Shown: positions 2,292-10,279 of the stretch, in pieces
Layout: the number at the start of each line of letters is the position of its first letter
How positions within the stretch are numbered: position 1 is the stretch's first letter
Assembly: GCA_963836075.1 (NCBI GenBank)
Contig: CAWIIB010000001.1
Location: 1,248,001 to 1,312,000, forward strand
Direction of reading: 5' to 3'
Source: an uncultured Acidobacteriota bacterium
GTDB lineage: Bacteria; Acidobacteriota; JAQAZP01
DNA: 64,000 nucleotides
Notes under the pieces: model-generated
Told to the model about the DNA's origin: nothing
Database searches by the model: none
What the model saw: only the letters and a program-made list of their open reading frames with translations
Program-made: the position numbers and the translations under genes

Positions 2292-2419
2292 GGCGACAGT
2301 CACCTATTTCATGGCCTTGCGGCAGCGAATGCAAAAACTGGTGACTGTCACCCGGGGATATGAGCAGTAAAACTCACAAATAAAATAGGATGGCTTGTTT
2401 AAAATAGGTGGCTGTCACC
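2292..2419. repeat. Three copies of an 18-bp imperfect palindromic REP-like motif
   Basis: GGCGACAGTCACCTATTT (2292-2309); inverted copies AAACTGGTGACTGTCACC (2335-2352) and AAATAGGTGGCTGTCACC (2402-2419). Confidence 0.65.
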
Positions 2420-2510
2420 ACTTTAATATCCCCTGACAGTTTCCGATAAGGGGGGTATGAATCCGAACCAGCCGCTGTGGTATCATATTTTTTTTACATG
2501 AGCATTCCAG

Positions 2511-3563
2511 ATGCGTCAGAAGCAGCGGATCAAGCGCTCCCTGATCAGGGAGCTGGTTGAAGAGAATATCGAGGCCATCGAGCGTCGGCCCCGGGGATCC
2601 CTGCGCCGGCGCCGCCGGTTCAATCGGGCCCGGCTGTTCCACTGGATTCTCAGTGGCGTGGCCGGGATGGCGGTGGGGGCCCTGCTCTTTTTCACGGTCC
2701 TCGACACCGGGGGCCGGCTCTACCGCCAGTGGCTTGGAGGAGACCCGGATCCGGGTCCCGCCGAGACCGACGGCTCGGTTCTCGACACGCTGGGGGAGGC
2801 GGTCCTGCCGGCCGGGTTCACCCGCCCCGAACCGCTGGCGCCCGATGTGATCCCGCTGGCCGTCAACCGGATCGCCATCGACGCCGGACATGGCGGGGAC
2901 GAGGAGGGGACGATCACCGAGTCGGGGCTGATGGAGAAGGAGCTGACCCTCGACATCGCCCACAGGCTCAGACGGCTCCTCGAATCGGCCTCCTATTCGG
3001 TGACCATGATCCGCACCGGGGACGAGGACGTACAGCTGAAGGAAAGGGCCAGGACGGCCAATGAGGCACGGGCGGACATCTATCTCTCGATCCACGTCAA
3101 CTGGATCCGCAACCGCACGGTGCGCGGGGTGGAGACCTACTATCTGGGGCCCACCGACGACCCGCACATTCGGAAGCTGGCCTCTTTGGAGAACCGCGAT
3201 TCCGGATACTCGGTGGCCGATTACCGGCGCCTGCTGGACTCGATTTACGCCGATGCCCGGAGCTTCGAGTCGCGGCGCCTGGCCACCGCGGTCCAGCGTT
3301 CGCTGTTCAGCAGCCTGCGCCGCACCACACCCGAAATCAGTAACCGCGGGGTCAAGTGCGCGCCCTTCGTGGTGCTGGTGGCCACGAATATGCCGGCCAT
3401 CCTGGCCGAGGTCTCCTGCCTGTCCAACGAACATGAGGCCCGGCTGCTGGCCCGGCCCGCCTATCGTCAACAGATCGCCCGAGCTCTTTTCGAGGGGATC
3501 CGAAATTACAGTGCACCGCCGGAAACCGCAGACAGCGGCGGCGGAAAAGGGAAGGAATCATGA
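2511..3563 (+). CDS. N-acetylmuramoyl-L-alanine amidase (Amidase_3) with an N-terminal membrane anchor
   Basis: IAIDAGHGG, EKELTL, SIHVN and LAEV zinc-amidase motifs; Arg-rich N-terminus followed by a hydrophobic helix. Confidence 0.92.
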   Translation: MRQKQRIKRSLIRELVEENIEAIERRPRGSLRRRRRFNRARLFHWILSGVAGMAVGALLFFTVLDTGGRLYRQWLGGDPDPGPAETDGSVLDTLGEAVLPAGFTRPEPLAPDVIPLAVNRIAIDAGHGGDEEGTITESGLMEKELTLDIAHRLRRLLESASYSVTMIRTGDEDVQLKERARTANEARADIYLSIHVNWIRNRTVRGVETYYLGPTDDPHIRKLASLENRDSGYSVADYRRLLDSIYADARSFESRRLATAVQRSLFSSLRRTTPEISNRGVKCAPFVVLVATNMPAILAEVSCLSNEHEARLLARPAYRQQIARALFEGIRNYSAPPETADSGGGKGKES

Positions 3564-4591
3564 GTACAGAGCAAGGTGATCTCTATATCGGTATCGACCT
3601 CGGGACATCGCGCAGCGCCATCGCCACATCCGAAGGCCAGCGTCACGTGGTGGAGAGCTACGTCGGCTGGCCGCTGGACATGGTGGCCCGGAAGGTGATC
3701 AAGCGGGACGTGCTGATCGGCCGGGAAGCGCTGGACAACCGGATGATGCTCGACCTGCACCGGCCGCTGGAACGGGGGCTGCTCAAGGAGGGCTCGGAAA
3801 AGGACCAGGCCGCGGTGCGCCAGCTGATGTCCCACCTGCTGGACCTGGCCGGGGTTCGCGAGATCCGCGAGAAAGGGGCCAAGGTGCGGGCAGTGGTTGG
3901 TGTGCCGGCCGAAGCCCTGCGGGTAAACAAGGAGCACCTGCGTGAAGCGCTCCAGGGCCTGGTGGACGGCCTGATCATCGTTTCCGAGCCGTTCGCCGTT
4001 GCCTACGGCATGGAAGCCCTGCTCCACGCCCTGGTGATCGACGTGGGAGCCGGCACCACCGACTTCTGCATGATGAAAGGCCACTACCCCACTGACGAAG
4101 ACCAGCGGACTCTGCCCAACGCCGGCGACTGGGTGGACGAACAGCTGGCCACCCTGCTGGCCGAACGGAAAGCCGAGGTCAAGGTTTCGATCCACACCGT
4201 GCGGCAGTGGAAGGAAAACTGGAGTTTTGTCGGTGACAACAGCAAACCGCTGAAGGTCAACGTTCCGGTGGGCGGAAAACCGACGGAAATCGACATCACC
4301 GACGAACTGCGCGTGGCCTGCGAAGGGCTGATCGCTCCGGTGTCGGAAACGATGATCGACCTCATTGCCGCCACCGAAACCGAATACCAGGAACGTGTGC
4401 GCCAGAACATCATCCTCGCCGGTGGCAGCTCGGCCATCCGGGGTTTTGCCAAACGCCTGGAGGACGAACTCGCCGACTACGGCGGCGGCAAGATCAAAGT
4501 GGTGGATGACCCAGTCTTTGCCGGGTGTGACGGGGGGCTGGCGCTGGCCATCGATGCACCCGGCGCCGATTGGGAAAAACTGACCAACTGA
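3560..4591 (+). CDS. MamK-like actin-family ATPase
   Basis: Actin phosphate motifs IGIDLGTS and IDVGAGTTD; VSEPFAVAYG, PTDEDQRTL..AG, FSFVG-like WSFVG, QNIILAGG and DPVFAGCDG match MamK segments; ATGA overlap with the amidase stop. Confidence 0.88.
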   Translation: MSTEQGDLYIGIDLGTSRSAIATSEGQRHVVESYVGWPLDMVARKVIKRDVLIGREALDNRMMLDLHRPLERGLLKEGSEKDQAAVRQLMSHLLDLAGVREIREKGAKVRAVVGVPAEALRVNKEHLREALQGLVDGLIIVSEPFAVAYGMEALLHALVIDVGAGTTDFCMMKGHYPTDEDQRTLPNAGDWVDEQLATLLAERKAEVKVSIHTVRQWKENWSFVGDNSKPLKVNVPVGGKPTEIDITDELRVACEGLIAPVSETMIDLIAATETEYQERVRQNIILAGGSSAIRGFAKRLEDELADYGGGKIKVVDDPVFAGCDGGLALAIDAPGADWEKLTN

Positions 4592-4605
4592 AACTCGGGG
4601 AAAAT

Positions 4606-5067
4606 ATGAGTGATGAAATCACAACCGCCGCCTGGGAGGGCATCAACCTCTGCCGGGGCGGCTCCTGGAGCCAGGGAGTAACCCGCCTGACCCGGGTGGC
4701 CCGCGAGAAGCATCCGGACACCAAACTCCCCGGGATCTTTTACTCTTATCTGGGGTATGGCATCGCCCTTTGTGAGCACCGGGTCCGCGAGGGCCTGGTC
4801 CTCTGTGAGCAGGCGGTGAAGACCGGGTTCTACGAGCCGGAGAACTACCTCAATCTCTCGCGGGCTTTCCTGCTGCGCAAGAATCGCCGGGCGGCGGTGA
4901 AGTGGCTGAACAAGGGGCTCAAAGTGGATCCAAATCACGAGGGCCTGATCAGCCTGCAGCAGGACATGGGCGTCCGGAAGCGGCCGATCATCCCCTTCCT
5001 GTCCCGGGACGCCGCCTTCAACATTTTGCTGGGCAAAATGCGGCACAACCTGACCAAACGCCGCTGA
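4606..5067 (+). CDS. TPR-repeat protein
   Basis: YSYLGYGIA...PENYLNLSRAFLL...GLKVDPNH TPR-like helices; C-terminal GVRKRPIIPFLSR motif. Confidence 0.75.
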   Translation: MSDEITTAAWEGINLCRGGSWSQGVTRLTRVAREKHPDTKLPGIFYSYLGYGIALCEHRVREGLVLCEQAVKTGFYEPENYLNLSRAFLLRKNRRAAVKWLNKGLKVDPNHEGLISLQQDMGVRKRPIIPFLSRDAAFNILLGKMRHNLTKRR

Positions 5068-5133
5068 TTCCTGACACCGGAGCGCCCAAGCGAACACCGG
5101 CGCAGCCCGGTCATCCGTTGGAGGACCCGTACC

Positions 5134-6771
5134 GTGAAACCGCAGCTCTCCCTGCTCATCGCCGCCCTGCTGGCGGTTGCCGCCCCTACGGCGCCAACCG
5201 CTGAGGCCTGCACCAACTTCCTGGTCACCAGGGGCGCCTCCGCCGACGGTTCGGTGATGATCACCTACACCTGTGACGGCGAGTTCCACCCCACCATGCG
5301 CTACCTGCCGGCCGAGGACCACGAGGAAGAGTTCGAGGAGCTGACCCACTGGACCGGCGAGGTGGTGGGCAGGATCCGCCAGGTGCCGCACACCTATGCC
5401 GTGGTGCAGCTGATGAACGAACACCAGGTGGCCATGGGCGAGACCACCTGGGACGGCCGGGAGGAACTGCGCAACAAAGAGGGGATGCTGCACTACTGGA
5501 TGCTGATGCGGCTGGCCCTGCAGCGCTCGCGCACCGCCCGGGAAGCCATCGAGGTGATGGCCGCCCTGGTGGACGAGTACGGCTACTCCAGCACCGGCGA
5601 GTCGATGGTCATCGCCGACCCCGACGAGGCCTGGATCATGGAGATCATCGGCCCCGGCCCGGGCGGCAAGGGTGCCATCTGGGTGGCCATGAAGGTGCCC
5701 GACGGCTCGGTCTGCGCCTATGCCAACAAGTCACGGATCGCCGGGTTCCCTCTGGACGACCCCGAAAACTGCCTCTACTCACCCAACGTCATCTCCTTTG
5801 CCGTGGAAAAGGGCTACTACGACCCGCAGAGCGGCGTCCCCTTCAGTTTCCGCGATGCGTACTGCCCGGCCTCGCCGCAGAAGATCGGCTACACCTCCAC
5901 CCGGGTCTGGAGCCTCTACCGCCGCTGCGCCCCCTCGCTGGAGCTCACCGCCGACTACAGCAGGGCCGCGGCCGGTGCCGAGCACTACCCGCTCTGGATC
6001 GAGCCGGATAAAAAACTGAGTGTGGGTGACGTCTTCGACCTGATGCGCGACCACTACGAAGGCACCGAGCTGGACATGACCAGGGGTGTGGACGCCGGCC
6101 CCTTCGGCACACCCAACCGCTGGCGGCCCATGACCTTTACCGTGGACGACGAACTCTACTCCTGGGAGCGACCCATCTCCACCCAGCAGACCGGCTTCTC
6201 CATCGTCACCCAGTCCCGCTCCTGGCTCCCCGACCCGGTGGGCGGCGTGCTGTGGTATGGCGTGGACGACACTGACGGCACCTGCTACGTGCCGATGTAT
6301 TGCGGCATCGACCAGGCCCCCGAGGCCTTTACCCGGGGCAGCTTCACGCACTTCTCCTGGGACTCCGCCTGGTGGATTTTCAACCTGGTGGCCAACTATG
6401 CCAACCTCAAGTATTCCTACATGATCGAGGACATCCGCGCCGTGCAGTCGGCCATCGAGGACGAGTTCCTCGCCCTGCAGCCGGAGCTGGACCGCACCGC
6501 CGCCGCCCTCTACGAGAAGGACCGGCCGCTGATGACCCGCTACCTCACCGATTTCTCGGTAAGCCGCGCCGAGCAGACCGTCACACGGTGGCAGGCCCTG
6601 GCCGAGCACCTTATCACCAAGTACAACGACGGCTACGTGCGGAACGAGAAAGGCCGGCCCGAGGAAGTGGGCTACCCCGAAAGCTGGTTGCGCGAGGTGC
6701 TGAACAGCCGGCCCGAGCAGTTCAAGATGGACAACCGGGGGAAGACGGTGGAGACGGAACTCTGGTCCTAA
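5134..6771 (+). CDS. C69 family dipeptidase (secreted)
   Basis: Signal peptide ending AEA followed by nucleophile CTNFLVT; MNEHQVAMGETT and ERPISTQQTGFS motifs. Confidence 0.9.
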   Translation: MKPQLSLLIAALLAVAAPTAPTAEACTNFLVTRGASADGSVMITYTCDGEFHPTMRYLPAEDHEEEFEELTHWTGEVVGRIRQVPHTYAVVQLMNEHQVAMGETTWDGREELRNKEGMLHYWMLMRLALQRSRTAREAIEVMAALVDEYGYSSTGESMVIADPDEAWIMEIIGPGPGGKGAIWVAMKVPDGSVCAYANKSRIAGFPLDDPENCLYSPNVISFAVEKGYYDPQSGVPFSFRDAYCPASPQKIGYTSTRVWSLYRRCAPSLELTADYSRAAAGAEHYPLWIEPDKKLSVGDVFDLMRDHYEGTELDMTRGVDAGPFGTPNRWRPMTFTVDDELYSWERPISTQQTGFSIVTQSRSWLPDPVGGVLWYGVDDTDGTCYVPMYCGIDQAPEAFTRGSFTHFSWDSAWWIFNLVANYANLKYSYMIEDIRAVQSAIEDEFLALQPELDRTAAALYEKDRPLMTRYLTDFSVSRAEQTVTRWQALAEHLITKYNDGYVRNEKGRPEEVGYPESWLREVLNSRPEQFKMDNRGKTVETELWS

Positions 6772-6794: not shown

Positions 6795-8672
6795 TCAGGG
6801 ACCATACCCTTCCACAGTGCAACTGTCGCTGTCGGTGTAGCCCGCCGGCGGATAGGGCGGCCGGTTGTAGGGATATGGCGTGACGTCCTGGGCTTGCAGG
6901 GTGAAGGTATTCAGCCCCACCAGCGTACCGAGGGCCGGCAGGTTCTGCATCCAGGAACTGGTGAACATCGCCTCCGGACCGATGTTGGTGAAGCCGGCCC
7001 GCCAGGAGGGAAAGACCGTCCCGTTGGCCAGCCGGGCCTCCAGTCGGCCGGCCATGCGGCGGGACTGCCCGTCGTAGTGATTGAGCAGCGAGGCCGTGAT
7101 CAGGGTGCCGAAGGGCAGGGTGCCGGCGGCAGGTTCGCAGGTCAATATACAGCTCACCGTGACCGGGTTCTGGTAGTCGCTGAGCAGAAGATAGCCCTGG
7201 CCCGATTTCGATCCCCCTTCATTGTCTAACGGTGCCCCGATCAGGAAGTCGTCGAAACCGTTGCCGTCCACGTCGCCCGCCCCGGCCACGGCATACCCGG
7301 AATAGCCCCCCCACCGCTCGCCATGGAATGACGCATCGGCGAGAGAGAGACCGGTGTCCATGGCCCAGCCGGCGGCCCGGCCCAGGATCAGGTAGGTCTG
7401 CCCGGCATCGCTGCTCCCCTCGTCGCTGCCGGAAGCCCCGATGAGAAAATCGTCGAACCCGTCACCGTTGACGTCACCGGTTCCGGCCACGGTACCGGCC
7501 CAATCATCTGCAGCTTCCCCGAGAAACGAGGCATCAGCGGCCGAGAGACTGACGTCGGTTTCCCAGCCCGCAGCCCGGCCCCGGACGAGGTATGCCTGCC
7601 CGGCACCATCACCGGCCTCGTCGTTGCCGGAAACACCGATGAGGAAATCGTCGAACCCGTCACCATTGACATCACCGGTTCCGGCCAGGCTTCCACCCGA
7701 TTGATCGGCAGCATGCTCTCCCAGCCAGGAGGCGTCGGCATGGGAGAGGGAGAGGTTAAAACTCCAGCCCGAGGCCCGGCCCAGGATGAGATAGGTCTGG
7801 CCCACATCCGCACTGCCCGGGATATTCCTCCCCCGGGCGCCGACGAGAAAATCGTCGTACCCGTCACCGTTGACGTCCCCGGCCCCGGCCAGGCCAGAGC
7901 CCGAATAGTCGTTCGGCGCTTCGCCGCGAAGCGAGGCATCGGCGGCGGAGAGGGGTGTGTCCATGGCCCAGCCTGTTTCCTTGCCAAAAATGATGTAGGT
8001 CATACCGGCTAAGGAAGGGCCAATGGAACCGATGATGATGTCGTCATATCCGTCACTGTTCACGTCACCGGCCCCGGTGGCGGACAGCCCCGAGCGGTCG
8101 CCGGCATTTTCACCGAGAAACGAGGCATCAACGCTGGAAAGGGGCTTGTCCATCACCCAGCCATCCGGACGGCCCAGGATAAGGTAGGTCTGCCCCGCGC
8201 TGTCGCCGGCTTCATCGTTTTGCTGGACCGCGATGAGAAAATCGTCATACCCGTCGCCGTTCACATCGCCGGCCCCCGCCCGGCGCAGGGATCGGCCCGA
8301 CGAGTCGGCCGGGGCCTCCCCGATAAACGAAGCGTCGGCGCTGCTGATCAGCGTGTCCCTGGCCCAGCCGTCCGGCCTGCCGAGGATGAGGTAGGTCTGC
8401 CCGGCACTGCTGCCGCCCTCGGAATTGCCGTAGCTGCCGATGAGGAAATCGTCATACCCGTCGCCGTTCACGTCACCCACACCGGCCAGTGATTGCCCCA
8501 GATAGTCACCCTGGTCTTCGCCCCAGAAGGAGGCATCGGAGATCCCCAGACTCGTGTCGCTCACCCAGTCGGCCAAGGTGACTGCGGACACAGCCAGGCA
8601 GAGAACCAGTGACAGGCCAAAACCGGTCAGGCGCCTGAGCCGTAGAGATCTGCAAGGTGTGCGAATCATCAT
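6795..8672 (-). CDS. Secreted FG-GAP (integrin alpha beta-propeller) repeat protein with a C-terminal Ig-like domain
   Basis: Repeated GDVNGDGY/FDDFLIG...AGQTYLILGR...ADASFxGE units; RBS CAGGAGGG before ATG 8672; signal peptide. Confidence 0.88.
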   Translation of the reverse strand: MMIRTPCRSLRLRRLTGFGLSLVLCLAVSAVTLADWVSDTSLGISDASFWGEDQGDYLGQSLAGVGDVNGDGYDDFLIGSYGNSEGGSSAGQTYLILGRPDGWARDTLISSADASFIGEAPADSSGRSLRRAGAGDVNGDGYDDFLIAVQQNDEAGDSAGQTYLILGRPDGWVMDKPLSSVDASFLGENAGDRSGLSATGAGDVNSDGYDDIIIGSIGPSLAGMTYIIFGKETGWAMDTPLSAADASLRGEAPNDYSGSGLAGAGDVNGDGYDDFLVGARGRNIPGSADVGQTYLILGRASGWSFNLSLSHADASWLGEHAADQSGGSLAGTGDVNGDGFDDFLIGVSGNDEAGDGAGQAYLVRGRAAGWETDVSLSAADASFLGEAADDWAGTVAGTGDVNGDGFDDFLIGASGSDEGSSDAGQTYLILGRAAGWAMDTGLSLADASFHGERWGGYSGYAVAGAGDVDGNGFDDFLIGAPLDNEGGSKSGQGYLLLSDYQNPVTVSCILTCEPAAGTLPFGTLITASLLNHYDGQSRRMAGRLEARLANGTVFPSWRAGFTNIGPEAMFTSSWMQNLPALGTLVGLNTFTLQAQDVTPYPYNRPPYPPAGYTDSDSCTVEGYGP

Positions 8673-8711
8673 CCATCTCCCTCCTGTCCGACTGCCGGAC
8701 ACTCGATGAGT

Positions 8712-8749
8712 ATTAACTATGTTGTAAGTTAATCCCTGACGGTTGTCAA
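8712..8749 (-). promoter_or_regulatory. Putative promoter (-35 TTGACA) with an overlapping inverted-repeat operator ATTAACT-N8-AGTTAAT
   Basis: TGTCAA at 8744-8749 on the + strand; inverted repeat 8712-8733. Confidence 0.45.
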
Positions 8750-9001
8750 GTTCGGCCAAATCCCGTCACAGGATGAAAGTGACCTCCGGGGCAAACAAGT
8801 GGAGAGGGAGTTGCTGGATTGATCCAAAACACCGGTTATTTCCAGCCCCCCTCGATCACCGCGGCGAGGGTCTGGAAATAGAGATTCAACCGGTGGCCGA
8901 ACCGGCCGGGATCGGACTCCAGGCCATCGAACTCAGCCTTGATCAGGTCCACCAGCAGTTCCCTGGTTGGCACGTTTTCCTTTGCCGCACAGCCCAGGGG
9001 G

Positions 9002-10279
9002 TCAAGGTTTCGCGGCGGCCCGCAGCAGGGCTTCGATTTCATCCGAATCGGCGTAGTCAAGGGCGGTCTTGCCTTCGTCGTTCTCGATGGCGGGGTCGGC
9101 GCCATATTCGAGGAGCAGCTCGACCATGGCTTTGCTGCTCTTGGCGGCCGCGTTCATCAGGGCCGTCACACGGTCCCCTTCCGTGATCACCGCGTTTACG
9201 TCGGCGCCGTTGTCCAGCAGCCAGCGAACGATATCCAGGTCCTCGTTTCGGGCAGCGAGAAACAACAGCGTGGTCCCGTCGTCGGCACGGGCCAGGGGGT
9301 CTGTACCGGATTCAGCCAGCCTCAAGGCGACGTCGTGGTGTTCCTGTTTGATGGCCCGGAACATCGGCACACGGCCGAAATGGTCACGCGCATTGACATC
9401 GGCGCCGTTGGCCAACAACAGGTCCACGATCTCGAGATTTCCCTGCTCGGCCGCCAGATGCAGCGGTGTGAGCTGCAGGGTCATGTTGACGTCGTCTCCC
9501 TGCTCGATCAGGGACTTGACCACCGCAACGGTCCCGTGTTCCGCAGCCGTCACCAGGTTCCAATCGTCACCACCACTGAAGGACGACAGATGGAACAGCA
9601 GGATGTACAGTATCGTCATGAGTGTCATGACAATCATGTAGCCGCCCATCCCGAGGACGTACGCGGCGACTGTTTTGAGCACGGTGAGGACCCGGCCTCC
9701 TAAAAAACGTGTGGAAGCATAGCTGAAGTAGGCCAGGGTCACCGGAATGCCGAGGATCGCCGGATGGAGGGAGAACAACGTTGACAGGGGAAGAAGCACA
9801 ACGCCGAACAGCGCTGTATGACCAACGGTGTACAGGGCAAAAACGGCCATCTCGGCCAGGTTGAATCCTGTCCGGCGAAAAAAGAGGCGGAGCATCACGG
9901 CAAAGGGGATCAGGATACCCAGCGACGTGTAGAGCATGTTTTTGAACAACAGCCGCATGAGGTCCGACATGATGGCCACCTGGGCCGGACTCAGCTCGGG
10001 ATTGTCGGTCGTGCCAGCGATCATCGACTCCTGGAAGCCCACGCTGGTCTGGATCAGCACGCTGATCGCGGTGGCCACCAGCAGGTAGGCGAAGGGGTTG
10101 GCGTAGAGCAGCCGTTCGCCTTCGATATAGCGCCGAATCATCTCTCCCGGTTCGGTGAACAGCTCCTTGAACGTGCGCAGCCACCCGTTCTCCAGGCTGA
10201 AGAAGCGGGTCAGCACATCGTGCATGATCTGCCGGAGGGTCAGCCGCTGTCCGTGTGTGTTCTTTTCCAGATCAGGCAT
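9002..10279 (-). CDS. DUF3667-like membrane protein fused to ankyrin repeats
   Basis: ENGWLRTFKELFTEPG...Y..G.R..YANPF N-terminal motif, TM helices, then TPLHLAAEQG and GADVNA ankyrin repeats. Confidence 0.8.
   Translation of the reverse strand: MPDLEKNTHGQRLTLRQIMHDVLTRFFSLENGWLRTFKELFTEPGEMIRRYIEGERLLYANPFAYLLVATAISVLIQTSVGFQESMIAGTTDNPELSPAQVAIMSDLMRLLFKNMLYTSLGILIPFAVMLRLFFRRTGFNLAEMAVFALYTVGHTALFGVVLLPLSTLFSLHPAILGIPVTLAYFSYASTRFLGGRVLTVLKTVAAYVLGMGGYMIVMTLMTILYILLFHLSSFSGGDDWNLVTAAEHGTVAVVKSLIEQGDDVNMTLQLTPLHLAAEQGNLEIVDLLLANGADVNARDHFGRVPMFRAIKQEHHDVALRLAESGTDPLARADDGTTLLFLAARNEDLDIVRWLLDNGADVNAVITEGDRVTALMNAAAKSSKAMVELLLEYGADPAIENDEGKTALDYADSDEIEALLRAAAKP

Follow-up and report, generated by a model that had tools for sequence, protein, structure and literature searches.

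The bacterial actins with known jobs are few, namely MreB, FtsA, the ParM-type proteins and MamK. The aiming of potentially lethal cell-wall hydrolases is likewise a long-standing question, to which the answers so far have been FtsZ-linked activators and, recently, the bactofilin-LmdC pairing. This report concerns a two-gene module coding for a membrane-anchored N-acetylmuramoyl-L-alanine amidase and a MamK-like actin, located near the start of a 64,000-nucleotide stretch of DNA (the window, whose positions are used throughout) from an uncultured Acidobacteriota bacterium (GenBank assembly GCA_963836075.1, contig CAWIIB010000001.1, positions 1,248,001 to 1,312,000). The results suggest that wall cleavage could be steered from the cytoplasm in a manner not described before.

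Several described systems come close to this module in one respect or another. In Hyphomonas neptunium and Rhodospirillum rubrum, a conserved cytoplasmic motif of LmdC is reported to be needed for its recruitment by the bactofilin BacA (PMC10945521). BeeR has been described as a three-stranded tubular actin of Verrucomicrobiota (bioRxiv 10.1101/2023.11.07.565980). In Thiomargarita, a mamK homologue lies next to a flotillin gene, and the available text of that report makes no mention of an amidase-actin pair, while the word ‘motif’ is absent from the main text of a study of MamK coiled-coil partners in Desulfovibrio magneticus. Full-text searches for MamK or bacterial actins together with an amidase, with supplements outside their scope, returned no paper on the pair, and it is not explained by anything found in print.

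Three genes lie head to tail on the plus strand between positions 2511 and 5067, as read from the listing of open reading frames (ORFs) and the sequence. They encode the bitopic amidase (2511 to 3563, 350 amino acids), the actin (3560 to 4591, 343 amino acids), and a small protein with a tetratricopeptide repeat (TPR) fold. The stop codon of the amidase gene overlaps the start codon of the actin gene in an ATGA (3560 to 3563, plus strand), and a gap of 14 bases (4592 to 4605) separates the actin stop from the ATG of the TPR gene. Both features had been described in an earlier note made from the sequence alone, and both are borne out by the ORFs and the sequence.

The reading preferred here, which we consider moderately probable, is that of a cytoskeleton-tethered amidase, in which a MamK-like filament binds a cytoplasmic helix of the enzyme and sets where or when it cuts. 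A translationally coupled module would supply the actin along with an amidase of the inner membrane that has a periplasmic catalytic domain and a basic cytoplasmic tail of about 41 residues. An amphipathic helix of this tail (about residues 7-23, its face formed by L11, I12, L15, V16, I20, and the invariant N19) would dock into a cleft of the actin between the region of about residues 138-155 and the C-terminal helix 329-341. The filament would then tether, cluster or move the amidase, and in this way determine the place or time at which stem peptides are cut from glycan strands, most likely in the setting of cell separation or local wall remodelling. From synteny, motif conservation and one structure prediction we infer tethering, placing or gating of the amidase as the function of the filament and, with it, polymerisation, the location of the tail and the cellular role.

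The amidase-actin pairing is real and conserved well beyond chance. The closest loci, which are the best 80 of 190 relatives in a scan of species-representative genomes, are nearly all from Acidobacteriota (Thermoanaerobaculia, Holophagales), with a few from Syntrophobacter, Binatia and ‘delta proteobacterium’ metagenome-assembled genomes (MAGs). An amidase gene lies directly upstream of the actin gene in 79 of these 80; in the remaining locus, L060, the flank is limited to 268 nt, within which a C-terminal remnant resembling an amidase is seen. All adjacency counts were made by tblastn with filters off, a choice that matters in GC-rich genomes rich in low-complexity sequence; under default settings (SEG filter and composition-based statistics) 51%-identical amidases in L029 and L075 (about 4910-5995) were missed and the count was 77/80. 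In a wider, mixed, alignment-seeded sample the amidase was adjacent in 27 of 79 loci, which belong to Desulfobulbaceae (Thermodesulfobacteriota), Nitrospirota, Gammaproteobacteria (Pseudomonadota), Rhodothermales (Rhodothermota), Aminicenantes and Binatia (Binatota), and carriers of the module come from six phyla or more. No amidase was found within 10 kb in any of 80 Planctomycetota-type loci (seed P0131), 76 of which have enough flank to judge. The adjacency that the earlier note had read from a single locus is therefore conserved, in a clade-specific manner. Within Acidobacteriota the module is lineage-restricted, the actin being present in 24 of 301 evenly sampled genomes. Across phyla the pair appears to be a portable, self-contained unit, as on a Rhodothermales chromosome (L207:8005-11487) where it stands alone between thyA (thymidylate synthase) and folA (dihydrofolate reductase). 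Clustering of neighbouring genes was noisy, owing to shadow ORFs in GC-rich DNA, and only clusters checked with Pfam were used.

The amidase is a member of the Amidase_3 family (PF01520; 162.6 bits against a gathering score of 27), with its catalytic domain at residues 121-332 (positions 2871 to 3506, plus strand; Pfam E 1.2e-47). Residues H127, E142, H195 and E300 are invariant among 80 aligned upstream amidases, and by analogy with AmiA/B/C and CwlD we take them to be the zinc ligands and the catalytic glutamate. The NCBIfam AmiA and AmiC models span the whole catalytic domain (residues 121-333) at scores far under their cut-offs, and the protein lies below the NCBIfam equivalog cut-offs for CwlD (112.4/221.55), AmiB (94.6/532), AmiA (92.4/400) and AmiC (86.3/700). 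Its N-terminus consists of an Arg/Lys-rich tail (residues 1-41, positions 2511 to 2633, plus strand), a predicted transmembrane (TM) helix at about residues 42-64 (positions 2634 to 2702, plus strand), and a linker to the catalytic domain; no signal peptide or AMIN domain was found in the translation or by Pfam. The TM call was read from a hydrophobic stretch in the translation, and the closest relative (L003) reaches a Kyte-Doolittle value of 2.23 from residue 46 in a 19-residue window. The Arg-rich N-terminus and single TM helix that the earlier note had reported are thus seen in the translation, and the positive-inside rule would place the tail in the cytoplasm. The source genome (G000; 6.23 Mb, 10 contigs, 94.7% complete) encodes two further Amidase_3 proteins, which are longer and have signal-peptide-like starts by eye, and so the tailed amidase is an extra paralogue.

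The tail contains a conserved helix motif at residues 11-22 (LIRELVEENIEA; positions 2541 to 2576, plus strand), recognised by alignment and by pattern. In the window it reads L11 I12 x x L15 V16 x x N19 I20 x A22 and is followed by a basic stretch and the membrane helix; ILRGVYEENL is an example from other phyla. Asn19 is the invariant residue of the cytoplasmic tail in the 80 aligned upstream amidases, which come from at least six phyla. The first pattern drawn up matches 83 of 88 complete upstream amidase ORFs, and the other five are over-extended ORF calls, for which the first 220 residues were searched. A looser 12-residue pattern, which the window motif fails at the last position only, was present at the expected place in 52/70 of the closest amidase loci vs. 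1/469 control windows, and in 17/22 amidase loci of the wider sample vs. 3/328. It was also present in the absence of an amidase, in 56/76 Planctomycetota-type loci (control windows, 4/1122) and in 27/49 other loci (control windows, 8/702). The upstream gene of the Planctomycetota type ends in the same pattern, e.g., LMSKIFEANVEL or LLDEIFKLNVEL, and in L083-L162 a conserved end, GVASIY.xVQGL and then KKxLMxxIFxANLxL, lies ~40-300 nt upstream of the actin match. Motif-bearing loci without an amidase include three deep-branching magnetotactic MAGs (L206, L213, L215), and the motif was found in none of the alphaproteobacterial-type cluster loci L165-L179. Since related actins without an amidase have the motif upstream as well, it goes with the actin and not with the enzyme.

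Modelling of a complex between the actin (79-row alignment) and amidase residues 1-42 gave scores of 0.88, 0.88 and 0.87, whereas the best of three controls scored 0.00. The pLDDT of the tail was 64-67, and at least 68% of the contacts were common to the runs. In the model, tail residues 3-25 touch actin residues 124-128, 138-155, 174-176, and 329-341. The contacts of least error involve tail residues 7, 8, 11, 12, 14, 15, 16 and 19, and the least-error pairs join L11, I12, L15, V16 and N19 to actin residues 138-141, F145, Y149, L154, 174-176, 329 and 332-334. We take the predicted site to be the hydrophobic cleft separating the two actin halves, where ParR binds ParM and where the next filament subunit inserts. 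The core of this cleft (F145, Y149, L154, G174, P334) is common to all three groups of actins compared (amidase clade, Planctomycetota type, mamAB type). Positions on its rim are clade-specific (R128 vs. I/L or L; A333 vs. M or L; D337 vs. F/Y or Y), which would fit partner-specific tuning and proves nothing. The complex model supports binding of the tail to the actin rather than showing it, and together with the invariant Asn19 motif it lends computational support to the contact that the earlier note had proposed between the cytoplasmic tail and the filament.

A broader reading, which is possible but doubtful, is that the 12-residue helix represents a universal docking peptide of a large family of MamK-like actins, little studied and spread over many phyla, with the pattern of two hydrophobic residues, two of any kind, two hydrophobic, two of any kind, Asn, one hydrophobic, one of any kind, and one hydrophobic. 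In one clade an amidase would carry the motif at its N-terminus, and in others, some of them deep-branching magnetotactic, coiled-coil proteins would carry it at their C-terminus. As the helix would occupy the cleft through which subunits touch along the filament, it would bind at filament ends, and the actins would constitute ParMRC-like machines that push or pull cargo of the membrane, here a cell-wall amidase, instead of being static scaffolds.

Accessory genes in other lineages bear on what the amidase contributes. The ligands of SPOR domains are glycan strands that have lost their peptides, the product of amidases. A gene with a receiver-like (REC) domain, a TM helix and a SPOR domain (E 4.5e-13 to 8.4e-15) follows the actin gene in L182, L183 and L184 (Nitrospirota or ‘delta’). 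In many Thermoanaerobaculia loci a PilZ gene lies directly upstream of the amidase gene, and its product is composed of a PilZ domain (E 1.4e-12), a Pro-rich linker, a TM helix and a C-terminal domain; this protein has matches in 48 loci by default tblastn, and its N-terminal PilZ region has matches in 42 with filters off. To judge from their domains, such accessory genes would carry wall-binding domains behind a cytoplasmic sensor domain.

We regard it as rather unlikely that the amidase serves chiefly as a membrane anchor, a nucleator or a cap, with the real task of the filament lying elsewhere (cargo, pole or compartment) and the helix being a general docking peptide of which the amidase is just one bearer among several. 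This explanation gains from the 56 of 76 Planctomycetota-type loci in which the motif ends non-enzymatic, apparently coiled-coil proteins, and from the predicted site, presumably the cleft that ParR uses at the ends of ParM filaments. It sits poorly with the invariance of the catalytic residues in 80 amidases, because of which enzyme activity is under selection, with accessory SPOR and perhaps AMIN domains that read the state of peptidoglycan, and with an amidase-actin pair that travels as a unit across phyla. Nor do we find it likely that the two proteins are only co-expressed, without contact, their adjacency reflecting shared regulation or joint horizontal transfer. Neighbouring genes often encode proteins that do not bind one another, and the support for binding here is a prediction; nevertheless, the invariant-Asn motif is predicted to face the cytoplasm, in which the sole conserved partner is the actin, the modelled complex far outscored its controls (0.88 vs. 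0.00), and the motif follows the actin even where other proteins replace the enzyme.

The identity of the actin was assessed with family models, solved structures and a tree. It scored 375.5 bits on the NCBIfam MamK model (NF040964, cut-off 400; 376.2 bits in the whole-genome search) and 212.6 bits on the BeeR model (NF053558), well under the cut-off of 530 for that family, and the two MreB models gave 50.6/293 and 35.8/365.75 bits, which place it outside MreB. Pfam returned weak matches to MreB_Mbl (59 bits) and Actin (57 bits). Among solved structures in the Protein Data Bank (PDB), MamK of M. magneticum was matched over 336 residues (5ljw, residues 6-341, E 6.3e-77), followed by BeeR as the second-best solved match (8r2n, E 2.1e-41), and MreB at E 1.1e-6 (4czf). 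The MamK-characteristic segments named in the earlier note (GIDLGTS, VGWPLD, AVVGVPA, VSEPFAVAYG, KENWSFVG and others) are present in the translation and align with solved MamK. The phosphate-1, phosphate-2 and adenosine motifs (DxGxxx, DxGxGT and a GG pair) are invariant in 79 actin sequences, and fold, nearest similarity and nucleotide motifs all assign the protein to the MamK-like superfamily. By their invariant catalytic and nucleotide-binding residues the amidase and the actin both look functional, and the actin probably polymerises in the cytoplasm and binds ATP.

Annotation pipelines call these proteins ‘rod shape-determining protein MreB’, and the ParM-derived actin FcmB has been reported to control cell shape in Nostoc (PMC12645912), points that would favour a second MreB-like shape determinant, which guides wall synthesis while the amidase trims behind it. 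We consider this improbable given MreB scores of 36-51 bits against 375.5 for MamK, the true mreBCD genes elsewhere in the genome, and the lack of a synthase, RodA, PBP2 or RodZ gene beside the pair among the neighbours scanned. The one other actin match in the source genome is the true MreB (Pfam MreB_Mbl, 490 bits), which is followed by MreC and MreD ~313 kb from the window actin; the earlier note had seen no mreC or mreD in the window. From the model and structure scores and the separate mreBCD genes, the window actin is judged to be MamK-like and not the MreB of the cell. The earlier designation as a MamK-type actin accordingly holds in the sense of MamK-like rather than MreB, and fails in the strict sense of MamK, since the score is below the cut-off and the protein lies outside the clades of mamAB clusters. 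The cut-off of 400 is itself loose, as a non-magnetosome Planctomycetota protein passes it at 420.5 bits.

The tree (95 rows; maximum likelihood by IQ-TREE quick search under LG+C20, with the genome’s own MreB as outgroup) places every amidase-adjacent actin, including that of the window, in one clade of 40 rows (SH-aLRT 99), of which two other rows are P0124, a protein without context, and a locus without flank. This clade is nested within one of 74 rows (support 100) together with the Planctomycetota-type and other non-magnetosome actins. Outside the 74-row clade are the actins of mamAB-type clusters (L165, L166, L171, L172, L179, L167), which are alphaproteobacterial or from Magnetococcales, Zetaproteobacteria and one Nitrospirota. 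The window actin hence groups not with MreB, the outcome that would have undone the earlier identification, but among MamK-like, non-magnetosome actins. Sequences of Syntrophobacter and Binatia fall among those of Acidobacteriota (support 100), a placement that suggests horizontal transfer.

Other members of this actin family were noted in passing. A Deltaproteobacteria MAG contains an actin (L163:6859-7896) that scores 495.6 bits on the MamK model and lies amid hemL, ATP synthase and rimO genes; a TPR protein near it is weakly MamA-like (92.7 of 200 bits). An actin over the cut-off in such a context means that a magnetosome cannot be read from the NCBIfam MamK name. In metagenomes, relatives of the window actin at E up to 1e-10 number more than 5,000. 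MamK-family proteins are recorded from ANME-2/Methanosarcinales archaea, Nitrospira, Gemmatimonadota and Verrucomicrobiota (clusters of P0150, P0124, P0130 and P0129), mostly under the source name ‘rod shape-determining protein’. Many MamK-like representatives are 700-1230 amino acids long and have a C-terminal actin domain behind an N-terminal extension of 370-900 residues (these include P0133, P0134, P0137, P0139, P0140, P0144, P0145, P0149, P0151, P0152 and P0154).

Searches for magnetosome genes agreed with the earlier claim that the actin stands outside a magnetosome context, as the search of the full genome with profile models found no magnetosome cluster. The NCBIfam MamI model (cut-off 80) had no match anywhere in the source genome, and the best scores for MamP (42.7/300), MamQ (109.6/250) and MamO (95.5/800) were far under their cut-offs; generic, domain-level matches of this sub-cut-off MamP/MamQ/MamO type occur in non-magnetotactic control genomes as well. 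In five magnetotactic genomes used as a positive control, MamI was detected in all five (70-98 bits) and full-length MamO in four (506-859 bits). The verified mamAB operon of L165 has MamI, E, K (539 bits), M, O, P, A, Q and B over cut-offs. When ten Mam proteins of this operon were compared with the source genome by tblastn, nothing was found for MamI, MamL or MamP, and the other queries recovered the window actin plus scattered generic homologues (HtrA at C1:911 kb, CDF at C1:2,066 kb, LemA on C9 and at C1:1,603 kb), with no specific MamE, O, M, B or Q. No mam gene was found by eye among the ORFs of the first 12 kb of the window. This absence of mam genes is not absolute, because the genome is 94.7% complete. 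NF040962, tried as a Mam-related model, proved to be an unrelated family. An explanation as a lysis unit of phage or mobile-element origin, or as what is left of a magnetosome cluster, for which matches of the amidase domain to PHROG endolysin families (phrog_435, E 8.7e-30) and a patchy distribution with signs of transfer could be cited, is very improbable and both phage origin and magnetosome context are rejected as largely refuted, since the PHROG matches cover only the generic Amidase_3 domain, the actin has just a 29.8-bit match to a partition protein, the neighbours are housekeeping genes, and neither the Mam models nor the ten-protein search found a cluster while the positive controls worked.

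A number of points weigh against the tethered-amidase reading. Binding of the tail to the actin stands as model confidence, and the calibration of the complex-score mark, which was reached by 58/80 solved complexes and 2/110 mismatched pairs, holds only roughly here because own alignments were supplied. As the cleft is, we presume, the site of filament contacts, the tail may bind only monomers or one end of the filament, in which case side-tethering would give way to capping, nucleation or end-tracking as the mechanism. That the actin polymerises is presumed from its family. The phylogeny comes from a quick tree search with SH-aLRT support only, a single, very long MreB outgroup and an unsure root. 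The two other, secreted Amidase_3 proteins of the source genome could serve ordinary cell separation, and the patchiness of the module (24/301 Acidobacteriota genomes) implies that its role is not a core division function. Finally, neither a PilZ nor a SPOR accessory gene stands beside the pair in the source genome, and AMIN in the C-terminus of the PilZ protein fell below the Pfam threshold in the two proteins searched (E 0.014 in one, nothing in the other).

The third gene of the locus (4606 to 5067, plus strand; 153 amino acids) encodes a three-repeat TPR protein by its AF2 model (mean pLDDT 92.3, seven helices plus a C-terminal helix) and by Foldseek matches to three-repeat TPR domains such as HOP TPR1 (1elw, E 2.4e-4, TM 0.75 by target). 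It has no Pfam or NCBIfam match, and a 51%-identical homologue lies just under the TPR_2 threshold (25.8 vs. 27). The earlier note had counted this protein as coupled to the amidase and actin, a claim that did not survive. Among its 107 homologues (E up to 0.001), most are 40-57% identical, and the gene directly follows the actin gene in 2 of the 80 closest loci (L003, L004). In the genome sample it adjoins the actin gene in two genomes of the same genus and is on other contigs in more distant carriers. Members of the family occur in 82 of the 301 Acidobacteriota genomes sampled, regardless of the actin, a count that includes two flagged as unpublished (G156, G029), on which the conclusion does not depend; in genome family f19 it is present in 19/20 and the actin in 0/20. 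With genus-only adjacency and a distribution uncoupled from that of the actin, the TPR gene was rejected as a member of the module and is probably a neighbour.

In loci from Syntrophobacter, Binatia and ‘delta’ genomes, the gene after that of the actin encodes a different small protein (L033:7109-7417, L060:1263-1670, L063:2067-2414, L078:2486-2821). It contains a single membrane helix and a conserved segment that is probably coiled-coil, and its only Pfam match is sub-threshold (DUF4094). No coiled-coil accessory gene stands beside the pair in the source genome, where the sole PilZ-domain match is 540 kb away.

Upstream of the amidase gene, a 224-base gap separates it from a gene for an ABC_tran_2 membrane protein, and a secreted C69 peptidase is encoded downstream of the TPR gene, both by Pfam. 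A scan for sigma-70-like promoters upstream of position 2511 found no site, a scan that is uninformative for this phylum. Metatranscriptomic run X20 contains a 235-nt and a 251-nt contig, both matching the amidase gene at ~97%, as well as three pieces of 32-41 nt (one of the amidase gene, two of the actin gene) that run on unlike the window; because DNA carry-over is possible and no contig bridges the amidase and actin genes, these contigs are no evidence of transcription. DNA near-identical to positions 2400-5200 occurs in freshwater-sediment, salt-marsh and marine-sediment metagenomes of several studies, and one public run (X1), which may represent the source sample, contains difference-free pieces of this region. 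Further along the window, on the minus strand, positions 6795-8759 encode a 654-residue protein with many GDVNGDGYDDFLIG-type repeats, FG-GAP-like by eye, and positions 9002-10279 encode a 425-residue membrane protein with ankyrin-like C-terminal repeats, also by eye.

If the tethered-amidase reading is true, the direct hold of an actin on the cytoplasmic tail of a peptidoglycan amidase would be an added way of aiming hydrolases, and magnetosome MamK would be a single specialised offshoot of a much larger actin family that binds cargo and whose partners have one short motif in common. Among known proteins, the amidase has the same Amidase_3 fold as AmiA, AmiB and AmiC, with the catalytic domain aligned (residues 60-277 of 291 in AmiA and 189-405 of 407 in AmiC) and the metal and catalytic residues kept, and differs from them by its predicted N-in membrane anchor and conserved cytoplasmic tail and its lack of a signal peptide and AMIN domain. 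The actin shares full-length similarity and the same nucleotide-binding motifs with MamK (5LJW, 5LJV, 5JYG; NF040964), and is 42% identical (259 bits) to MamK of the verified mamAB operon; in contrast to MamK, it lies outside any magnetosome cluster, in another clade, with a score under 400, and its predicted partner is an amidase tail, whereas that of MamK is presumably MamJ. A short partner helix modelled in the cleft between two actin halves also recalls ParM-ParR, if we place the ParR site correctly, and the system may work in a similar manner if the helix binds filament ends. The cargo in the window would be a membrane enzyme, however, whereas that of ParM is the DNA-bound adaptor ParR, and the ParM-type PHROG match of the window actin is weak. 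BeeR (PDB 8R2N) is, like the window actin, a MamK relative in non-magnetotactic bacteria (Verrucomicrobiota), described as having no known cellular function; it differs in having a disordered N-terminal extension of 30-50 residues, which the window actin lacks, and the available text of the preprint mentions no amidase partner (bioRxiv 10.1101/2023.11.07.565980). The closest analogue in logic is BacA-LmdC, in which the gene for a polymer is likewise clustered with that for a peptidoglycan hydrolase; the two systems are not homologous, a bactofilin, an M23 endopeptidase and a β-hairpin motif in the one corresponding to an actin, an Amidase_3 enzyme and a predicted helix in the other (PMC10945521).

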